A DNA stretch of 64,000 bases from Halarcobacter sp. (GCA_048571215.1 CP182352.1:576001-640000), one strand, 5' to 3'. Positions 28,035 to 35,935 are shown, counted from the first letter of the stretch. The notes: a model not told the origin generated them from the sequence alone. Numbers and translations are program-made.

Positions 28035-28442
28035 TTATAAAAGTAAAAAGTCTTCCACAATTTTTTTATGATCAAAAACAAGTTTATCTAAGGGAATCTC
28101 TTCAGGTTTATATATGAAAACCTCTTTTGCATCATCTTGTGCTTTAGGAGTTCCATAAGCTTTACATATATAAACAGCTGATGCAGTATGAAACCTTGGA
28201 TCCCTTTTAGGATCAGAATAGATATTTAATAAAGATTCAATTTGAACATCAAGGTTAGTCTCCTCTTGCATCTCTCTGATTAAAGCATTCTCAACTGTTT
28301 CTCCAATATCAACAAAGCCACCAGGAAGTGCCAAACCAAAAGGTTTATTTAATCTTTCAATTAAAACAATACCCTGAAAGTTTTCATCTCTATCAAAAAG
28401 TTTTATTATCCCATCAGTGCTTAAATGAGGCGTTTTTATCAT
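28035..28442 (-). CDS. NUDIX hydrolase (ADP-ribose pyrophosphatase-like)
   Basis: Nudix box GGFVDIGETVENALIREMQEETNL; RDPR; LVFDH. Confidence 0.93.
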   Translation of the reverse strand: MIKTPHLSTDGIIKLFDRDENFQGIVLIERLNKPFGLALPGGFVDIGETVENALIREMQEETNLDVQIESLLNIYSDPKRDPRFHTASAVYICKAYGTPKAQDDAKEVFIYKPEEIPLDKLVFDHKKIVEDFLLL

Positions 28443-28521
28443 AGTGTTCCTTTATCAATAAAATATAATTTCTTATTTATAAACTTTTAAATATAATACC
28501 AAAAATAATATAGGATATACA

Positions 28522-28794
28522 GTGGAAATTACAAAAATATTAAAAAGAAATGATGATTTGTTATCTTCTGAAATGGATAGTGAATTAGTGATGATGGATT
28601 TAGAATTAAATAATTATTATGGATTAAATAAAATTGGTAAAGACATTTGGGAACTTTTAGAAAATGATTTGACTTTAGAAGAGTTATGTAATAAGCTTAT
28701 TGAAAAATATGAGGTATCTTTTGAACAGTGCAATGAGGATATTAGTCCATTTATAGAAAAATTAGAAAAATTAAATATTGTTAAAGTTTCTTAA
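28522..28794 (+). CDS. PqqD/RRE protein (lasso peptide B1)
   Basis: 90 aa; D.ELVMMD....YYGLN.IG..IW..L...L...YEV pattern typical of lasso RREs. Confidence 0.9.
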   Translation: MEITKILKRNDDLLSSEMDSELVMMDLELNNYYGLNKIGKDIWELLENDLTLEELCNKLIEKYEVSFEQCNEDISPFIEKLEKLNIVKVS

Positions 28795-29139
28795 TTCAAT
28801 TAAGAATTTATTATCAAGATCTAAAAATTAAATTTTTATATTAATTGAGGCTTTTTTTATCTATTAAAAATAAAATATCTTCTTAAAAAATATGATTTTA
28901 ATTATTTAGTAAAAATTTATAACCTTAAAGTTGTAAATGTAGAGATTTGTGAAAAGTTTTGTAAAGAAGAGATTAGTTTAATAAATTGGGCAGTTGAGAG
29001 AAGTGCATCTGTTTTTCCTTGGGATGGTTTATGCTTAGTTAAGGTATTAGTTGTACAAAGAATACTTATATACTATTATTTACATGGGTGTAAAAAAGAT
29101 ATTTCACAGGCAGAACTTAAATCTTATTCCGAAAAGTAA
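28778..29139 (+). pseudogene. Lasso leader peptidase B2 (transglutaminase-like) pseudogene
   Basis: Manual translation: MLKFLNSIKNLLSRSKN*IFILIEAFF / shift in T7 run (28852-58) / YLLKIK...INWAVERSASVFPWDGLCLVKVLVVQRIL / shift / TIIYMGVKK. The catalytic AHAW motif is eroded (ELKSYS). Confidence 0.78.
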
Positions 29140-29296
29140 TAGTTTAAAACTTTTTTATTTATATTATTTTATAAGGCTTTATGACCTAATAAAAGGACAC
29201 ACTTTGAGTATACTTGGTATGAATCTAAAAGATAATAAAAAAGAGTTTCAAAATAAAACATCTTATGTATATAACTATTTAAATAAAAGGCAATAA

Positions 29297-30202
29297 TTGT
29301 ATCACTATAAAGCATTTAATCTTCATTTCCAAACTCCATTTATTTGTCCAGAATTAATCGAAATAGAAGAGAATAACAATTTAGAAAAAGTGATTGTTAA
29401 ATATTCAAAATTCGCTAAAAACTTAAGTAAAAACTTAGTAGATGAGAATAGATATTATCAATCAAATGAAAATGAATACTTGTTAGACATAAAAGATATA
29501 GCAAGATTTTTAATAAGAAATGGAAATGAGATTCTAATAGAACAAAAAGGAAATTTACCAATTGAGACTTTAAGATTATATCTATTTGGTTCAGCTATTG
29601 GAGCACTGCTTCATCAAAGAAAAGCTTTTCCTTTTCATGCAAGTGGAATTGTTACTTCAAAAGGTGTAATTCTATTTTGTGGTGATTCAGGAGCAGGGAA
29701 ATCAACAACTCTCCAAGCTTTTTTAAAAAAAGGCTATAAGAAAATATCTGATGATACAATTTCTATGTTTTATGATGAAAACAAAAAACAAATTATGTGC
29801 GTCCCCTCTTATCCTCAAAGTAAGATTTGGCAAAATACAGCAGATATATTTAATCATGATACAAATGACTTAAGACAAATACATAAAGATTTCAATAAAT
29901 TTGCACTTCCTACTCATGATAAATTTGAAGATAGGGTTTTACCTTTGTATACTATATATGAATTAAATATACATGAGGAAGATAGTTTAAAAATAGAAAA
30001 AATAAATTTAAATACTGAGAAGCTAAATACAATTATTTATAATACTTATAGATACTACTATTTAGATAAACTTCCTCAAAGAAAAAACCATTTTGATTTA
30101 TCATTAAAAATAGCCAAAAGTATAGATATATATATAATATATAGACCAAAAGAGAAAAATAGTTTAGATGAAATTATAAAAAATATAGAAGATATTATTT
30201 AA
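29297..30202 (+). CDS. HPr-kinase-like lasso peptide kinase (PadeK-like)
   Basis: LYLFGSAIGALLHQR..FHAS; Walker A GDSGAGKST; SDD; PSYPQ.KIW. Confidence 0.85.
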   Translation: MYHYKAFNLHFQTPFICPELIEIEENNNLEKVIVKYSKFAKNLSKNLVDENRYYQSNENEYLLDIKDIARFLIRNGNEILIEQKGNLPIETLRLYLFGSAIGALLHQRKAFPFHASGIVTSKGVILFCGDSGAGKSTTLQAFLKKGYKKISDDTISMFYDENKKQIMCVPSYPQSKIWQNTADIFNHDTNDLRQIHKDFNKFALPTHDKFEDRVLPLYTIYELNIHEEDSLKIEKINLNTEKLNTIIYNTYRYYYLDKLPQRKNHFDLSLKIAKSIDIYIIYRPKEKNSLDEIIKNIEDII

Positions 30203-30257
30203 TTATTATATATAAGAAATTTTATGATATACTTTTAGCAAAAATAATGGAGTTTTT

Positions 30258-30377
30258 ATGAAAAATAAAAAAGTTAATATAAAAGAAATTTGGATTAAAC
30301 CAGAAGTTAAAGAGTTAGATGTTAATAAGACTGCAAATGCTACTTCTGTTAATTCAGATGGTTCACTTTTAAGTTAA
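30258..30377 (+). CDS. Lasso peptide precursor A1 (39 aa, missing from ORF track)
   Basis: GGAG RBS. MKNKKVNIKEIWIKPEVKELDVNKTA-NATSVNSDGSLLS*. WxxP...LDV..T leader, Asp at core position 8, C-terminal Ser. Confidence 0.85.
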   Translation: MKNKKVNIKEIWIKPEVKELDVNKTANATSVNSDGSLLS

Positions 30378-30620
30378 GTAAATTATGGCTATTTATTTCT
30401 TTAAACATTTTTAGTTTTAGAATATGATAGATTAAGATTTTTTTTGGTAGATTTTTTAATAAGATTTTATAATTGGACTTAATAAATTTACCGGCTCTTT
30501 ATGTACCCTTTATTATGTTATTATGATTCTAGTGTAGCATTTATAAAAGATGCTCAAAATCATAAACTTTGCAGAATAGAAACAATTTAAAATAAAAAAA
30601 TAAAGATTTAGGAAATTAAT

Positions 30621-31709
30621 TTGAATTGGATTAAAACTATTTTTATAAATATAAATATTTTAATAATATTTATATTTATATTAAATATGTCAAGCATAGG
30701 GATATATAAGATATATCATATTTTGAATGATGTAAAAAATAATGATAAAAAGTATGAACTACCTAGCTACGCAAATCAAGATTGGGCAAAAACTTATTTT
30801 GATGAATTTAATAATGTATCTTTTCAATATAAAGATTATTATGTTTGGAGAAGTTTGCCTTTTTCTGGTGAGACAATAAATATAGATAAAAATGGACATA
30901 GAAAAACATATCAACATCCAGATGAAAATAATTTATCAAAAATAGCTGTTTTTATAGGTGGTTCTACTACATGGGGATTTGGTGCTTATGATGAGGGGAC
31001 CATTCCTTCCTTTTTTTCAAAATATATGAAAGGAAAATATAAAGCTGTAAATTTAGGAGAAAATGGTTATTGTGCATTTCAAGAATATACATATTTGAGT
31101 TATCAATTGGCAAATGGATTAAAACCAGACTTGATAGTATCCTATGATGGTGTAAATCAACTTAAATCTCTACAAAATATAAATGAAGGATTTGGAAGTG
31201 CAAGAGAAAATCAAATTCAAGAAATGATGAAAGGAAAAGATACAAAAAAGGATTTAGAATTTAATATGATTATAAAACCTATAAATGATTTTATAGTTAA
31301 ATTAGTTGAGAAATACAATAATAAAAACAAACAGGAAGAGTTAGATTTATCAGAAAAAAACATTGAATCAGCAGCAAAAGAAGTAATTGAGAGTTGGATG
31401 TTGATAAATAATCTTGCAAAAATAAATAATTCAAAGTATATTATTATACTACAACCAAATCTATACATTGGAAATCCAAAAAAAGATCATCTTATATTAA
31501 GAGAAGAACGAGGAAAAGCATATAAGTTATTGTATAAGAAAATAAAAGATATGATTAAATTGGAAAAATATAAAGATATTTATAGTAAATTTTATGATTT
31601 TACAAATGCATATGATAATGAACAATATTTATACTGTGACGATTGTCATGTATCTCCAGTGGGAAATGAGATAATAGCTAAAAAAATTATTAATATTTTA
31701 AATAATTAG
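30621..31709 (+). CDS. Membrane-anchored SGNH/GDSL hydrolase-fold protein
   Basis: N-terminal TM; FIGGSTTWG block I; NLG; YDGVN; DDCH..P.GN block V. Confidence 0.85.
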   Translation: MNWIKTIFININILIIFIFILNMSSIGIYKIYHILNDVKNNDKKYELPSYANQDWAKTYFDEFNNVSFQYKDYYVWRSLPFSGETINIDKNGHRKTYQHPDENNLSKIAVFIGGSTTWGFGAYDEGTIPSFFSKYMKGKYKAVNLGENGYCAFQEYTYLSYQLANGLKPDLIVSYDGVNQLKSLQNINEGFGSARENQIQEMMKGKDTKKDLEFNMIIKPINDFIVKLVEKYNNKNKQEELDLSEKNIESAAKEVIESWMLINNLAKINNSKYIIILQPNLYIGNPKKDHLILREERGKAYKLLYKKIKDMIKLEKYKDIYSKFYDFTNAYDNEQYLYCDDCHVSPVGNEIIAKKIINILNN

Positions 31710-31765
31710 AATAATATTCATTTGTTTAATGACAGAATTGAACATTAATAAAATAAGAGTTTTAT

Positions 31766-31899
31766 ATGGAAAATAAGAAAATCGAAAAAGTAGAAGTAAA
31801 AAAGTCTTGGGTTAAATCAAAAGTTAAAGAGTTAGATGTTAATAAAACAGCAGCTAGTGGTGGTGCTGTGCGTGGGATGGTTCAGCTTACGCTAGTTAA
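31766..31899 (+). pseudogene. Lasso peptide precursor A2, frameshifted in the core
   Basis: Leader WVKSKVKELDVNKTA shares a 25-nt exact match with A1. Core ASGGA..., then DGSAYAS* in a shifted frame (TAA 31897-99). Confidence 0.78.
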
Positions 31900-32253
31900 A
31901 AGTAAGCCGTTAAGAAACTATGTTAATCGGGTGAGACAATACCTGAAAATGTAGAAATTAAAGGTAAGAGAATTTACCTAAATTGTATTAGTAGTGTAAA
32001 AATAACTGTTTAAATCCAATTTTCAACTTATCGAATAGGCTTGAAATTTGCTCTGTCTGGTAGATTTATTTGAAGGGTTTACAGATGGAAATTTTAAATA
32101 AAGAACTATGTAGATAAATAAAAAAGATAAAGAGTACTCTCCTATGATGCACCTTTTTTTCAAGAAAAGTAAACTAGTTTGTATGAAGTCCTTTTGTAAC
32201 TCCGTACTTACTAAAAGAGATGTTGTTTAGATAAAAGTCTACCAAATTCTTTT

Positions 32254-34107
32254 TTATTGGTCTTGAAAAAAAGGTGCATTATAATTTAAAAATTCCATGA
32301 TTCCAACACTTTTAAAAAGTAAATGGGTATTCATAGCAGATAATTCTTTTTTCTTTAAAGTATTTAAATCTGCTAACAGCCTTTTTTTGTCAAATAGTTC
32401 AATGTCTATTAAATCAGTTTTAAAATCATTTATTATACTCTCAATTTCAGGGATATCTTTCTGTATTCTATCTATGATATCTGCACTTTGTAAACCTTTG
32501 TTTTTTTGATGTAAAACTTTATCTGGTAATCTATCTTTCATCAAATGTTTGATTATATTTTTCTCTTTATTCTCTTTAGAAATATATAGTTCATTTGGAA
32601 GTTTTAACATATATTCTATTACTCTTTTATCTCCTGTAGGATCAGCTAAATTTATATTAAAATACTGTGATGCATTTGCACCAAATTCACATCTTTTATT
32701 AAAACCTAACATTAGAATTTTTTTCATCAACTCTTTTTCATCATCTTTTGTAAAATAAAAAGAAAAGTCTTCATTTCTTTTTGATTTTTTTATTAACTGT
32801 TTTATTTGTATATCTAAAGAAGGGTTTAAATAACTATAGTCACTCCACATAGTTTTTTTTAACATATTTGTAAAAGGTTTATAATATCTTGAATAAATAG
32901 GTCTTAATAGTTTATTTTTGATTAAAGATTTAAGCCCATAGATTTCATATAATTTATCTGAGTCTAAAAGATAATTTATACCTGTGTAAGATGTCGTTGC
33001 ATTACCTGTTTCTCCACTAAGTAAAACTTCATGACTATTTTTTGAAACCTGACTATAAATATCCATTAACCAGTATGCATTAATGGTTGCATGAATTGGT
33101 TCATTAAAAACTTCAAGTGATAAACGCAATCCCTCAAGTGGCGTTAATTGTGCTGAATTTAAAAAGTGTGCATCTATATTCCCACATTTTTCTATAACAG
33201 CTTTCATATTAGCACTTTCATCACCATTTCTATCTCCAATTAGATCTTGTCTTATATTATATTGTGGTACATGGGAATATGTATGTAAAGTTTGATTCTC
33301 TTTTTTTAATAATTCACTAGCAACAGTGGAAACACTAGTACTATCTAATCCTCCACTTAACATAGAAGCTATTGGCTTATCACTTTGAATTCTACACCTT
33401 ACTGCTTCTGTAAATATCTCATTTAGCTCTTCAATAGCTTGATTTAAAGTTATACTATAATCAACTTTTATTTTTTCAGGGAACCAATATCTCTCTTTTT
33501 TTATCTCTTTTTTATTTAACCAAGCTCTATGAGCTGGATTTAGTACTTTTAAATTTTTGTAAAAAGTTGAGTCATCTTCAGATAAATAGACTATAGCATC
33601 TCTTCCAATTGCCTTTTCAATATCAATTGTCAAATCTATAAAAGGTATTTTTTTTATTAGCCTAATACTTGTAGAAACAATAATATAATCTGAATCAACA
33701 TAATAGTAAACAGCAGTATATCCATGATGATCTTGTGCTATAAAATATTCCTCTTTTTCAAAGTCATATATTAGTAAAGACCAATCTCCTATTATCTTAT
33801 CTACACACTCTTGTCCATATTTTAAATAAAGTTCCAAAATAAGTTTAGTATTGTCAATATCTATGCAAGAATTATGATTTATGTATTTTTTTAATTCTTT
33901 TTTATTGTATATTCTTCCATTAAAAATTATAGATATCTTTTTTGATTGTGATTTATATGTTTGAATATTGTTTATATTTGAATTGGATAAAATTAAATGA
34001 TTTTTTTCAAATAGAGAATGATTATATGAAAATGTATGAGAAAAACCTTTTAGGTCATCTTTTATAAATTGTTTTTTTAAACTTAGTATTGATAGAAAAC
34101 TGTGCAT
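32254..34107 (-). CDS. Lasso cyclase (asparagine synthetase-like, C protein)
   Basis: 617 aa; GRIYN..EL, GDWS, MLSGGLDSTSV PP-loop, LLSGETGN..SY, D.RVIE...P, KGLQSAD. Lacks the N-terminal Cys2 of true AsnB. Confidence 0.88.
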   Translation of the reverse strand: MHSFLSILSLKKQFIKDDLKGFSHTFSYNHSLFEKNHLILSNSNINNIQTYKSQSKKISIIFNGRIYNKKELKKYINHNSCIDIDNTKLILELYLKYGQECVDKIIGDWSLLIYDFEKEEYFIAQDHHGYTAVYYYVDSDYIIVSTSIRLIKKIPFIDLTIDIEKAIGRDAIVYLSEDDSTFYKNLKVLNPAHRAWLNKKEIKKERYWFPEKIKVDYSITLNQAIEELNEIFTEAVRCRIQSDKPIASMLSGGLDSTSVSTVASELLKKENQTLHTYSHVPQYNIRQDLIGDRNGDESANMKAVIEKCGNIDAHFLNSAQLTPLEGLRLSLEVFNEPIHATINAYWLMDIYSQVSKNSHEVLLSGETGNATTSYTGINYLLDSDKLYEIYGLKSLIKNKLLRPIYSRYYKPFTNMLKKTMWSDYSYLNPSLDIQIKQLIKKSKRNEDFSFYFTKDDEKELMKKILMLGFNKRCEFGANASQYFNINLADPTGDKRVIEYMLKLPNELYISKENKEKNIIKHLMKDRLPDKVLHQKNKGLQSADIIDRIQKDIPEIESIINDFKTDLIDIELFDKKRLLADLNTLKKKELSAMNTHLLFKSVGIMEFLNYNAPFFQDQ

Positions 34108-34345
34108 TATTTTTATTCTTTAAATTTTATTTGTGTGATTCTATCGTATTCAAGTTAATCTTAGACTAAATCATCTAATTATAATTAAAGTGAGGTTATG
34201 TCATATATTTTTCATCTTTTGGTAGAAATATTAATATTGTTTTTTGTTTGAATAAATGTATATATATTATATAGTTTCAATTATTTAACTGCTATTAACC
34301 AAATATTGTATAGAATAATCTAAATTAATAAAAAGAAAAATTATA

Positions 34346-35935
34346 ATGAATAGTTTCTTAGAAAAAAATTTTGATGAGATTGTAAGGGCATCATTTCTTC
34401 TTTCTCCTCAAGCAATTTATTGGTTAAATAAAGATGGTAAACTTCTTTTTGCAAATGATAATGCTTTAAATAGATTAGATTATACTTTGGAAGAGCTTCA
34501 AAATCTAAATCTTTGGGATGTTGATGTTACTGTTGATACAAAAGAGAAATACCTACAAGCTCTTGATAGTTTTGAAAAGGGGCAGATACTTGAATCAAAT
34601 GTAATTCAAACTTACCATAGAAAAAAAAACAATGAAACTTTTCCTGTTGAGGTTGTATCAAGATTTCATAAAATAGATTCAGAAGAATATATAGTATCTT
34701 ATGCAAAAGATATTACAAATAGAGTTCAACGAACAGAAAAAATAAATCTTTATTTTGAACTTATAAACTCTTCAAAAGATATGATTTTTTTAGTTGACTT
34801 AGAAACTGAAAGAATAGAGTTTGCAAATGATATTGTATGTGAAAGTTTAGGGTTTAGTTTTAAAGAACTAAATAAGATGAAGGTTTCTGATATTAGAAAA
34901 CCTGTAGAGGGTGAAAAAAAAATAAAGATATCTGAAGTTTTTGATAAACTAAAAGAGAGTAAAAACTTAATCACCCAAGGAATTTATATTACAAAAGATG
35001 GTAAAGAGATACCTGTAGAAACCTCTGTACATCTTAAAAACTATTTAGGTAGAAGTTTTGTTATTGCTATTTCTAGAGATATTAGTGAAAGAATTGAAAT
35101 AGAAAAAAAACAAATAGATTTAAATAAAAAGTTAAAAGAGTATAATCAAAATTTAGAAGAAGAGGTTAGAAAGTTTCAAAAAGAGTTGATTGATTATGAA
35201 GATATTATGAAAAAACAGTCAAAAATGGCAGCAATGGGAGAGATGATAGAAAATATCGCCCATCAATGGAGACAACCCTTATCTGCTGTATCTGTATTAT
35301 CAAGTGGTATGATGTTGCAAAACCAAGAAAATATTCTTGATAAAGAAACTCTAACTTCAAATTTAAATAAGATACATGAACAGGTTCAATATCTTTCTAA
35401 AACAATTGATGACTTTAGAAATTTTTTTAAACCTGATAAAGAAAAGAATAGCTTTAAAGTGAAGGATTTAATAAAAAATAGTATTAAACTTATTAAGTCA
35501 AGATATAATAATATTCCAATTCTATTTATTGAAGATATTGAAGATAATGAACTTTTTACTTATGAAAATGAACTTTTACAAGTTATACTAAATATTATAA
35601 ATAACTCAGTTGATGAACTTATTAATAAAGAGTGTAAAAGATTAATTTTTATTAACTCTTATAAAAAACATAATTATTTGATAATTAAGATAAAAGATAA
35701 TGGTGGTGGTATTGATGAGAAGATTATTGATAGAATTTTTGAACCATATTTTACGACAAAACACAATTATCAGGGAACAGGGATAGGTCTTTATATGTCA
35801 AACAATATTATAAGACATCTACATGGAAAAATAGAAGTAAAAAATATTATTACAAAACATGATGATATTGTTTATAAGGGTGCATCTTTTAAAATAAAAT
35901 TACCCTTGAGTTTTACAAAGGATAAATATGAATGA
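34346..35935 (+). CDS. Cytoplasmic dual-PAS histidine kinase
   Basis: Two PAS/PAC repeats (FPVEV, IPVET), AHQWRQPL, GTGIGL. Confidence 0.92.
   Translation: MNSFLEKNFDEIVRASFLLSPQAIYWLNKDGKLLFANDNALNRLDYTLEELQNLNLWDVDVTVDTKEKYLQALDSFEKGQILESNVIQTYHRKKNNETFPVEVVSRFHKIDSEEYIVSYAKDITNRVQRTEKINLYFELINSSKDMIFLVDLETERIEFANDIVCESLGFSFKELNKMKVSDIRKPVEGEKKIKISEVFDKLKESKNLITQGIYITKDGKEIPVETSVHLKNYLGRSFVIAISRDISERIEIEKKQIDLNKKLKEYNQNLEEEVRKFQKELIDYEDIMKKQSKMAAMGEMIENIAHQWRQPLSAVSVLSSGMMLQNQENILDKETLTSNLNKIHEQVQYLSKTIDDFRNFFKPDKEKNSFKVKDLIKNSIKLIKSRYNNIPILFIEDIEDNELFTYENELLQVILNIINNSVDELINKECKRLIFINSYKKHNYLIIKIKDNGGGIDEKIIDRIFEPYFTTKHNYQGTGIGLYMSNNIIRHLHGKIEVKNIITKHDDIVYKGASFKIKLPLSFTKDKYE

Follow-up and report, generated by a model that had tools for sequence, protein, structure and literature searches.

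A partly deleted kinase-type lasso peptide cluster inserted in a Halarcobacter genome, possibly served by a second lasso locus

The window analyzed here is a 64,000-nt stretch of a Halarcobacter sp. genome (GCA_048571215.1, CP182352.1:576001-640000). Within it, positions 28443..34280 (5,838 nt) are a horizontally inserted lasso peptide gene cluster of the kinase type (paeninodin/pseudomycoidin-like) that has been deleted in part. The cluster has lost its leader peptidase (B2) and its exporter, and it retains open frames for the leader-binding protein (B1), the precursor kinase, one precursor (A1), and the cyclase. We give an even chance to the reading that it kept working after the deletion, using in trans the B2 and the ATP-binding cassette (ABC) exporter of an intact paralogous cluster elsewhere in the same genome (locus 2). 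The lasso genes of the window locus are as follows:

28522..28794, + strand: B1, a PqqD-type RiPP recognition element (RRE; leader-binding chaperone), 90 aa, intact
28781..29131, + strand: B2 pseudogene (transglutaminase-like leader peptidase)
29132..29296, + strand: 3' remnant, last ~55 codons, of an NTP_transf_5 nucleotidyltransferase gene of the PsmN/BsfN type
29297..30202, + strand: HprK-like lasso precursor kinase, 301 aa, intact
30258..30377, + strand: precursor A1, 39 aa, intact; leader MKNKKVNIKEIWIKPEVKELDVNKTA, predicted core NATSVNSDGSLLS
31766..31954, + strand: precursor A2, frameshifted, 62-aa open frame
32254..34107, - strand: lasso cyclase (AsnB-like macrolactam synthetase), 617 aa, intact, convergent with the kinase operon

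A first-pass annotation of this DNA had named seven elements (an RRE, a B2 remnant, a kinase, two precursors, an SGNH-type gene, and a cyclase on the opposite strand), and all are present where it placed them. It had recognized a kinase-type cluster with split B1/B2 and a Ser-terminated precursor, and a copy in partial decay. We agree on both counts: B1 matches PF05402, the kinase has its motif, and A1 ends in Ser, while B2 carries a stop, a frameshift, and a truncation, A2 is frameshifted, and the exporter is gone.

B1 matches PF05402 with an E value of 7.8e-18 and scores 77.4 bits against NF033536 (lasso_PqqD_Bac; cut-off 80); the closest solved chain is TbiB1, a lasso RRE (E 2.1e-9). No long frame is open in the interval from B1 to the kinase, where B2-like pieces lie in two frames. 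A frame-aware comparison with the B2 of locus 2 aligns 28781-28861 with B2 residues 1-27 and 28852-29130 with residues 25-123, the latter at 45% identity (E 2.8e-24) with a 5-codon gap, so the proposed remnant is indeed B2. Its first codon is TTA (locus 2 B2 starts with TTG), TAA at 28829-28831 stands at codon 17, and the frame shifts at or near a run of seven Ts at 28852-28858. Invariant residues in an alignment of 24 B2 proteins are C86, G109, H122, and W124; of these, the Cys is still present in the remnant, H122 is replaced by Tyr (the EAHA of intact B2 reads KSYS), and the Trp is absent, as everything beyond residue 123, the C-terminal 29 residues, is gone. The B2 model NF033537 gives the remnant alone 12.9-14.4 bits. 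No intact B2 cysteine protease is encoded at the window locus.

The B2 remnant is joined directly to the end of a nucleotidyltransferase gene. Positions 29132-29287 align, in a different frame, with residues 352-402 of the 404-aa nucleotidyltransferase of locus 2 (61.5% identity, E 9e-20), which itself matches PF14907 (E 1.5e-38). One deletion thus fused B2 codon 123 to nucleotidyltransferase codon 352, with the junction near 29131. An 81-codon open frame at 29051-29296 had been ascribed to B2 in the first-pass annotation; its first third does overlap the B2 remnant, out of frame, and from 29132 it is the nucleotidyltransferase 3' end. The kinase start codon directly follows the stop of this remnant, much as the nucleotidyltransferase gene abuts the kinase gene in the comparator locus L037 described below.

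The deletion took the end of B2, the ABC exporter, and most of the nucleotidyltransferase, amounting to ~3.0 kb if the ancestor resembled L037 or ~3.7 kb if the DUF218 gene found in locus 2 was also present. There is no ABC gene within 28443-34280, which had been taken earlier as a feature of the system. Because the ABC gene of both locus 2 and L037 falls in the stretch that is deleted here, we instead read the missing exporter as damage, not design. With B2 dead and the exporter deleted, the window locus can neither cut its own leader nor export a product.

The host genome (G000) is one closed contig of 3.61 Mb, 100% complete by marker genes. NF033537 finds a single B2 above cut-off in it, at 2138601-2138987, inside the first of two further lasso-type loci:

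G000:C1:2138300-2149616, mixed strands: locus 2, intact paralogous kinase-type cluster, 1.53 Mb from the window locus
G000:C1:762871-773025: locus 3, lasso-type, with a 57-aa precursor (768107-768280, - strand), B1, a 614-aa cyclase, a kinase, and a sulfotransferase

Locus 2 encodes B1 (86 aa), B2 (152 aa), an ABC transporter (606 aa), a DUF218 protein, a nucleotidyltransferase (404 aa), a kinase (303 aa), a sulfotransferase, a 51-aa precursor ending ...VGAPGPFDGSGPYS, and a 592-aa cyclase, with a transposase gene and a 539-aa protein with a sulfotransferase domain on the other strand. The window proteins share 68% (B1), 40-41% (kinase), and 35% (cyclase) identity with their locus 2 counterparts, so the two loci are old paralogues and not recent copies. 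Locus 3 has neither B2 nor an exporter; it encodes a 272-aa relative of the N-terminal half of the 539-aa locus 2 protein, and upstream of it are a GT8 glycosyltransferase, two more sulfotransferases, three (phage-)tail-collar-domain proteins, a GNAT protein, and an Asp/Asn beta-hydroxylase. With one intact paralogous cluster and a further lasso-type locus in the genome, the decay of the window copy takes on a different meaning.

The full cluster closest to the window locus is not locus 2 but L037, found in a metagenome scan with the cyclase alignment (B1 71%, kinase 47%, cyclase 38% identity). Its A and C genes lie on one strand, convergent with B1, B2, exporter (D), nucleotidyltransferase, kinase, and sulfotransferase genes, a layout like that of the window, and its 45-aa precursor has the leader ...EWIEPEVIDLDIDKTE and a 21-residue core, TGTGGFLTDGTTAGTATNTNS. 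By comparison with these intact loci, the ancestral window cluster is predicted to have been B1-B2-D(ABC)-nucleotidyltransferase-kinase-sulfotransferase plus A-C. Two cyclase scans fetched 91 other loci in all, which we searched by tblastn at E 1e-5: 49 have a kinase, 48 B1, 39 B2, 32 an ABC exporter, 15 a nucleotidyltransferase, 7 a sulfotransferase, and none an SGNH gene. Absences in this set are weak evidence because many of the contigs are short.

That the cluster was inserted is evident from the neighboring genomes. Homology to genomes of the same genus stops at 28442, the end of the left-hand gene, and restarts at 34281, ahead of the right-hand one:

28035-28442, - strand: NUDIX gene, conserved left flank
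34346-35935, + strand: PAS histidine kinase gene, right flank

In a DNA search of 24 other genomes of the genus, the NUDIX side (to 28442) and the block from ~34258-34284 onward matched, and nothing between them did among the matches listed. In at least 12 of the 24 genomes, a single contig carries both sides with 10-209 nt between them (44 nt in G100 and G093); in 4 of 12 genomes with joined flanks, the PAS kinase gene is absent too. The insert itself has no mobility gene, and its GC content (0.21-0.27, against 0.22-0.28 in adjoining genes) carries no foreign signal. Scans for promoters (46 sites against 52.8 expected) and terminators (2 against 1.2 expected) were uninformative in this AT-rich DNA, and tRNA and Rfam scans found no match in or beside the insert. 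In another genome of the set, G091 (L123, G091:C15, 7744-7820), a tRNA-Gly(TCC) gene occupies the site that holds the insert in the window, and four further tRNA genes lie just past the NUDIX gene.

The cyclase was the element for which confusion with a housekeeping asparagine synthetase had been foreseen. It matches PF00733 and PF13537, with GATase_7 and Asn_synthase domains and an SGGLDS loop; its best NCBIfam model is NF033535 (E 4.4e-63; 213.9 bits, under the 525-bit cut-off), and among solved chains, amidotransferases and AsnB come closest to it (E 3.7e-16 to 5.7e-11). Housekeeping and polysaccharide-linked AsnB proteins are alike in domains but have the N-terminal Cys nucleophile that the window protein lacks: it starts MHSF..., with no Cys2, and its two paralogues start MNSF... 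and MNSI..., whereas MCG occurs within the first 12 residues in 17 of 19 AsnB-like open reading frames (ORFs) of the family. In a tree of 116 rows (built with FastTree only), a branch with support 100 sets off 95 rows that include all 55 cyclases from a lasso context and all three of the host genome, and all 19 AsnB-like rows of the family fall outside it. The window cyclase sits in a 16-row clade (support 100) with L037, locus 2, and homologues named for metagenome-assembled genomes (MAGs) of Aliarcobacter and of Sulfurovum and Sulfuricurvum, to which it is 84% and ~40-46% identical, respectively, in keeping with the Campylobacterota setting first proposed; its two nearest database homologues are at 84% and 70%. 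No close orthologue was found in the family genomes, where the best match, of AsnB type, is 33% identical. We therefore classify the protein, by sequence, as a lasso macrolactam synthetase distinct from true AsnB; the grouping with housekeeping AsnB that the first-pass annotation had named as a refutation does not occur.

The HprK models of Pfam and NCBIfam match the P-loop kinase weakly (21-24 bits, under their cut-offs), and its assignment comes from its motif and its 40-47% identity to kinases of intact lasso clusters. Residues H114, G129, G132, G134, K135, S136, D152, and D153 are spaced exactly as in the motif published for BsfK, H148-G163-G166-G168-K169-S170-D186-D187 (PMC10368454). Across 47 lasso-locus kinases, H114, G134, K135, and S136 are invariant and D152-D153 is found in 46. 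By this motif, the window kinase is predicted to be competent.

A lasso precursor is defined by Thr at position -2 of the leader and Asp or Glu at core positions 7-9 for the isopeptide ring (PMC9266682). A1, which directly follows the kinase with GGAG 8 nt upstream, has both: its leader ends ...DVNKT(-2)A(-1), and, given Thr at -2, the predicted core NATSVNSDGSLLS has 13 residues, with Asn1, Asp8, and a C-terminal Ser (ending SLLS). Its leader motif W(-15)xxP(-12)xV(-10)...T(-2) agrees with the L037 and locus 2 precursors, and the spacing W(-15)xxP(-12)x[VIL](-10)...T(-2) recurs in paeninodin-like metagenome candidates; A1 and the locus 2 precursor have KE.W..P.[VI]..LD...T in common. Like A1, the cores of locus 2 (VGAPGPFDGSGPYS) and locus 3 (ANNSRQSDGIADYS) carry Asp8-Gly9 and a terminal Ser.

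A2 reads ...DVNKTAASGGAVRGMVQ... in its open frame, which lacks both a terminal Ser and any Asp/Glu at core positions 7-9. Read in the -1 frame, it would give ...AWDGSAYAS and end with a stop at 31897-31899, in line with the other precursors; the frame switches somewhere in 31857-31878, a stretch that is not a homopolymer. The leader has Ser in place of the conserved Pro. The first-pass annotation called the two leaders near-identical, which applies to their last ten residues (VKELDVNKTA) and not to the whole, where 16 of 25 residues are alike; A2 as read is also frameshifted. At the DNA level the two genes form a 79-nt direct repeat (78% identity). A homology search with the 62-aa A2 ORF returned itself alone. 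A 349-nt contig of sequencing run X5 (depth ~4, 94% alike) joins the start of A2 (31746-31811) to the end of A1 (30295-30577); such a junction would arise from a tandem duplication, a recombination circle between the precursor genes, or an assembly cross-over in the shared leader.

The shortness of the core, remarked on at first reading, is borne out and has parallels. A pattern of our own design yielded 77 candidate precursors in the 91 loci, 32 of them ending in Ser with cores of 13-39 residues. Nine of these 32 cores have 15 residues or fewer (pattern matches, thus unverified predictions), among them 13-15-residue cores in L039, L043, L045, L046, L102, L111, and others. The L043 candidate, AGTSVNADLTASS, is close to the A1 core, and candidate cores that start with Asn, again as pattern matches, occur in L045, L047, L054, L059, and L064. 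Such candidates in other loci indicate that the short core is a recurring type rather than a truncation. Whether the A1 product would be a threaded lariat is uncertain, as the predicted tail has five residues behind an 8-residue ring.

Do the surviving genes remain under selection? If the whole locus became useless with the deletion, B1, the kinase, A1, the SGNH gene, and the cyclase would simply be frames that have not yet broken. We consider this unlikely, though it is the most serious of the rival explanations. Much about the locus fits a relic: B2, the exporter, and the nucleotidyltransferase are lost, A2 is frameshifted and lacks the conserved leader Pro, the sulfotransferase of all three comparators is absent, and an inverted scrap of the cyclase end (below) is a mark of further rearrangement. 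Branch lengths argue the other way. In three-way comparisons of the window, locus 2, and L037, the dead B2 has a branch of 0.57 against 0.22 and 0.29, that is, 2-2.6 times those of the intact genes, while the window branches are not lengthened for B1 (0.17, against 0.20 and 0.17), the kinase (0.39, against 0.53 and 0.36), or the cyclase (0.45, against 0.60 and 0.57). As B2 has drifted for long and the others have not sped up, B1, the kinase, and the cyclase probably stayed under selection after B2 died.

Simulation points in the same direction. Under random substitution of this AT-rich DNA, the B1, kinase, and cyclase frames all stayed open in 14 of 2000 trials at 0.02 substitutions per site (at least one closed in 1986) and in 0 of 2000 at 0.04. 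Extrapolated to the 4.2 kb of intact genes, the lesion density of the pseudogenes would give 16-20 disabling lesions, and none is seen. Contigs from two other studies contain pieces of the kinase, SGNH, and cyclase genes that are 92-99% identical, and 19 of 40 listed differences in B1, kinase, and cyclase, scored singly in this partial and rough sample, are synonymous.

After the deletion, B2 decayed further and the second precursor gene gained its frameshift. If the cluster does still function, its most likely mode of action may be set out as follows. The kinase would phosphorylate the C-terminal Ser13 of A1; kinases of this type are reported to act on the C-terminal Ser of the linear precursor before B2 and the cyclase do (PMC9266682). 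B1 would hold the leader through the WxxPxV...T(-2) motif, and the one intact B2 of the genome, that of locus 2, would cut after Thr(-2)-Ala(-1). The cyclase would then join the Asn1 amine to the Asp8 side chain, making an 8-residue ring and a 5-residue phosphorylated tail, and the locus 2 exporter would carry the product out. The locus 2 B2 and exporter would be the simplest partners because that B2 is the sole intact one and because the B1 and leader of locus 2 are the most similar. The comparisons establish which genes are present, the deletion and decay, the insertion, the paralogues, and the unequal rates of evolution; we infer the continued function, the supply of B2 and exporter in trans, the cleavage site, the ring, and the phosphorylation of Ser13 from sequence. 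A predicted complex of the window B1 with the locus 2 B2 had a median score of 0.31, where the mark is 0.32, and counts neither for nor against binding.

Several points weigh against continued function with help in trans. The presumed donor of B2 is distant, with a cyclase only 35% and a kinase 40% identical to those of the window, and we know of no characterized lasso B2 that is shared between clusters, though no literature search was aimed at this point. The window locus has no counterpart of the sulfotransferase encoded behind the kinase in L037, locus 2, and locus 3, and would therefore make a product unlike theirs. The decay of A2, a central component of the pathway, means that any selection on the locus is incomplete. 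The argument from lesion rates rests on few events, one of which, the frameshift at the T run, could be a sequencing error; at the 95% lower-bound lesion rates, the intact genes would be free of disabling lesions with a probability of 0.054 when two lesions are counted or 0.005 when three are, values that also leave room for a dead locus whose frames survived by chance.

The B2 step might also be dispensable. A general protease could remove the leader, or the cyclase could accept a substrate that is uncut or trimmed in some other way. For a related kinase-type cluster, lasso peptides are reported to form in vivo with neither leader nor leader peptidase (PMC6993621): given a core that lacks its leader, the cyclase alone can make pseudomycoidin, but the precursor had to be supplied in that leaderless form. 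Locus 3 has A, B1, cyclase, and kinase genes with no B2, and 12 of the 91 other loci have a kinase and B1 but no B2 by tblastn; that count is an overestimate, since at least one of the 12, L009, has B2 by blastp and many contigs are short. A1, for its part, still has its entire leader, including the conserved recognition motif and Thr(-2), and B1 has been retained as well, arguing for leader-dependent processing. On balance we think a B2-independent pathway improbable.

We rate equally low the idea that B1, the kinase, and the cyclase were kept as a second specificity for the precursors of the other two clusters, with A1 irrelevant. The genome does have three paralogous B1/kinase/cyclase sets and four precursor genes that all fit x7-D-G-x4-5-S, and the leaders of the window and locus 2 are similar. 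A1 is nonetheless intact, has a ribosome-binding site, and lies directly behind the kinase, and each of the other loci has its own complete B1, kinase, and cyclase.

It is very improbable that the lesions are assembly or sequencing errors in a locus that is really intact. One frameshift does fall in the T7 homopolymer at 28852-28858, and contigs of the four probable source runs, which gave only 20-38-nt chance pieces over the region, did not span it. A loss of ~3 kb that fuses out-of-frame fragments, the TAA, the His to Tyr change, and the 5-codon gap are unlike homopolymer errors, the B2 remnant has 45% identity where intact copies have 60%, and the genome is a closed and complete contig.

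Returning to the reading of function in trans, it could extend to the whole genome: one leader peptidase and one exporter, both of locus 2, would serve three diverged loci, with the window locus as a working satellite, and the products would be short phosphorylated lariats. This wider proposal is tentative and we find it doubtful. The lariats would have 13-14 residues, with an 8-residue ring (Asn1, Val1, or Ala1 to Asp8) and a 5-6-residue tail, and the plug would be the bulky phosphate at the C terminus, with sulfate or sugar added in the sister loci. To our knowledge, they would be shorter than any characterized lasso peptide.

Two further features lie within the insert:

30621..31709, + strand: membrane-anchored SGNH/GDSL-type hydrolase or acyltransferase (putative), 362 aa, intact, between A1 and A2
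32143..32173, + strand: inverted copy (31 nt) of the cyclase 3' end, an inverted repeat with 87% complementarity

The SGNH ORF has weak Pfam matches (PF13472, 24 bits, cut-off 32.9; PF00657, 23.3 bits, cut-off 23.6) and no NCBIfam match. It has an N-terminal hydrophobic helix and, read by eye, GGSTTWG, GENG, and DDCH blocks. Homologues are 45-61% identical, and the one at 45% is named an SGNH/GDSL hydrolase by NCBI. An orthologue is present in 1 of 183 genomes of the family (44% identity), where, from a reading of the ORFs only, it adjoins a 489-aa multi-pass MBOAT-like protein, two SGNH-/DltD-like proteins, and sugar-modifying genes, apparently a polysaccharide O-acylation locus. A 391-nt piece at 98% identity occurs in a contig of a close relative, and the gene travels with the locus there. 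The first-pass annotation had allowed for extra tailoring of the peptide; a tailoring role for this gene is unsupported, given that none of the 91 other lasso loci has a homologue and that the family relative belongs to an O-acylation-type locus.

The inverted copy would encode YDAPFFQEK and a stop. It lies just beyond the cyclase stop, 79 nt from the real cyclase end (32253-32283), and includes a 19-nt exact match (E 2e-6 in a small search). It is either an inversion/duplication scar or a long hairpin between convergent units. A tblastn search of 30371-32260 for cyclase remnants gave one match that stood out, the 11-residue cyclase tail at 32137-32169 (protein-level E 0.09), and for sulfotransferase remnants in the same interval there was no match better than E 0.09.

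Two observations concern the related loci. The transposase of locus 2, which we take to be IS256-like, has 9 identical full-length copies in the host genome, and six more copies consist of two overlapping pieces at ~99% identity, consistent with a frameshift. L004, a 6.3-kb contig of a Campylobacterota MAG, encodes a 53-aa precursor (core GGGTQDSLDSPFPNLIPS), a cyclase, a kinase, and B1, with a 196-aa ORF immediately behind them for which no lasso query protein gave a match; there is no B2 on this contig, which may end too early.

Kinase-type lasso clusters have been characterized in Bacillota and Bradymonadales (PMC9266682, PMC6993621, PMC10368454). The paeninodin cluster (pade) of Paenibacillus dendritiformis C454 has split B1/B2, an AsnB-like cyclase, an HprK-like kinase that phosphorylates the precursor at its C-terminal Ser ahead of processing, and an ABC exporter (PMC9266682, PMC6993621). 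The window locus resembles it in the terminal Ser of A1 and the complete kinase motif, and differs in that its B2 is a pseudogene, its exporter is deleted, an SGNH gene lies inside, and the host belongs to Campylobacterota, not Bacillota. The cores differ as well: that of paeninodin has more than 20 residues, and that of the window has 13 and starts with Asn.

In the psm (Bacillus pseudomycoides) and bsf (Bradymonas sediminis) clusters, a kinase and an NTP-transferase-like gene (psmN, bsfN) stand beside A, B1, B2, C, and D. The window likewise keeps the last 55 codons of an N-type gene and the kinase motif H-G-G-G-K-S-D-D, but its nucleotidyltransferase is nonfunctional. The N gene lies between B2 and D in psm, whereas in the comparators of the window family it lies between D and the kinase. 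Ser3 is the residue that BsfK phosphorylates, and BsfA carries Ile(-2) and ends in Asp (PMC10368454), where A1 has Thr(-2) and a C-terminal Ser. Locus 2 and L037 are of the same gene families as the window locus, with the W..P.[VI]..LD...T leader, core Asp-Gly after the ring, and terminal Ser; unlike the window locus, they have an intact B2, ABC exporter, nucleotidyltransferase, and sulfotransferase and no SGNH gene. Locus 2 further departs from the window locus in being collinear and in having a transposase element and a DUF218 gene.

The setting is rare. The B2 model found nothing in the 183 other genomes of the family, and the kinase was found in none of 400 other genomes of the phylum (evenly sampled, at least 90% complete, E 1e-10). 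Consistent with the earlier remark that no example is characterized from this lineage, full-text searches turned up no paper on a characterized lasso peptide from Arcobacter or Campylobacterota; in passages of PMC13635244, lasso clusters are only counted. Against this background, one species holds three kinase-type loci.

If the window locus is dead, it is an ordinary record of cluster decay, and its value is as a pointer to the intact locus 2. If the decayed copy instead works through the single B2 and exporter, nature would offer here a case of several clusters drawing on common lasso machinery, which would bear on whether RRE-leader specificity separates pathways or lets them cooperate. The 13-14-residue, Ser-ended cores raise the question of whether a five-residue phosphorylated tail is enough to hold a lasso, and, if the satellite arrangement is true, their recurrence would make them an unstudied subclass and not a one-off. 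Altogether, more interest attaches to the three loci with their single B2, to the short Ser-ended cores, and to the intact locus 2 than to the window copy itself.

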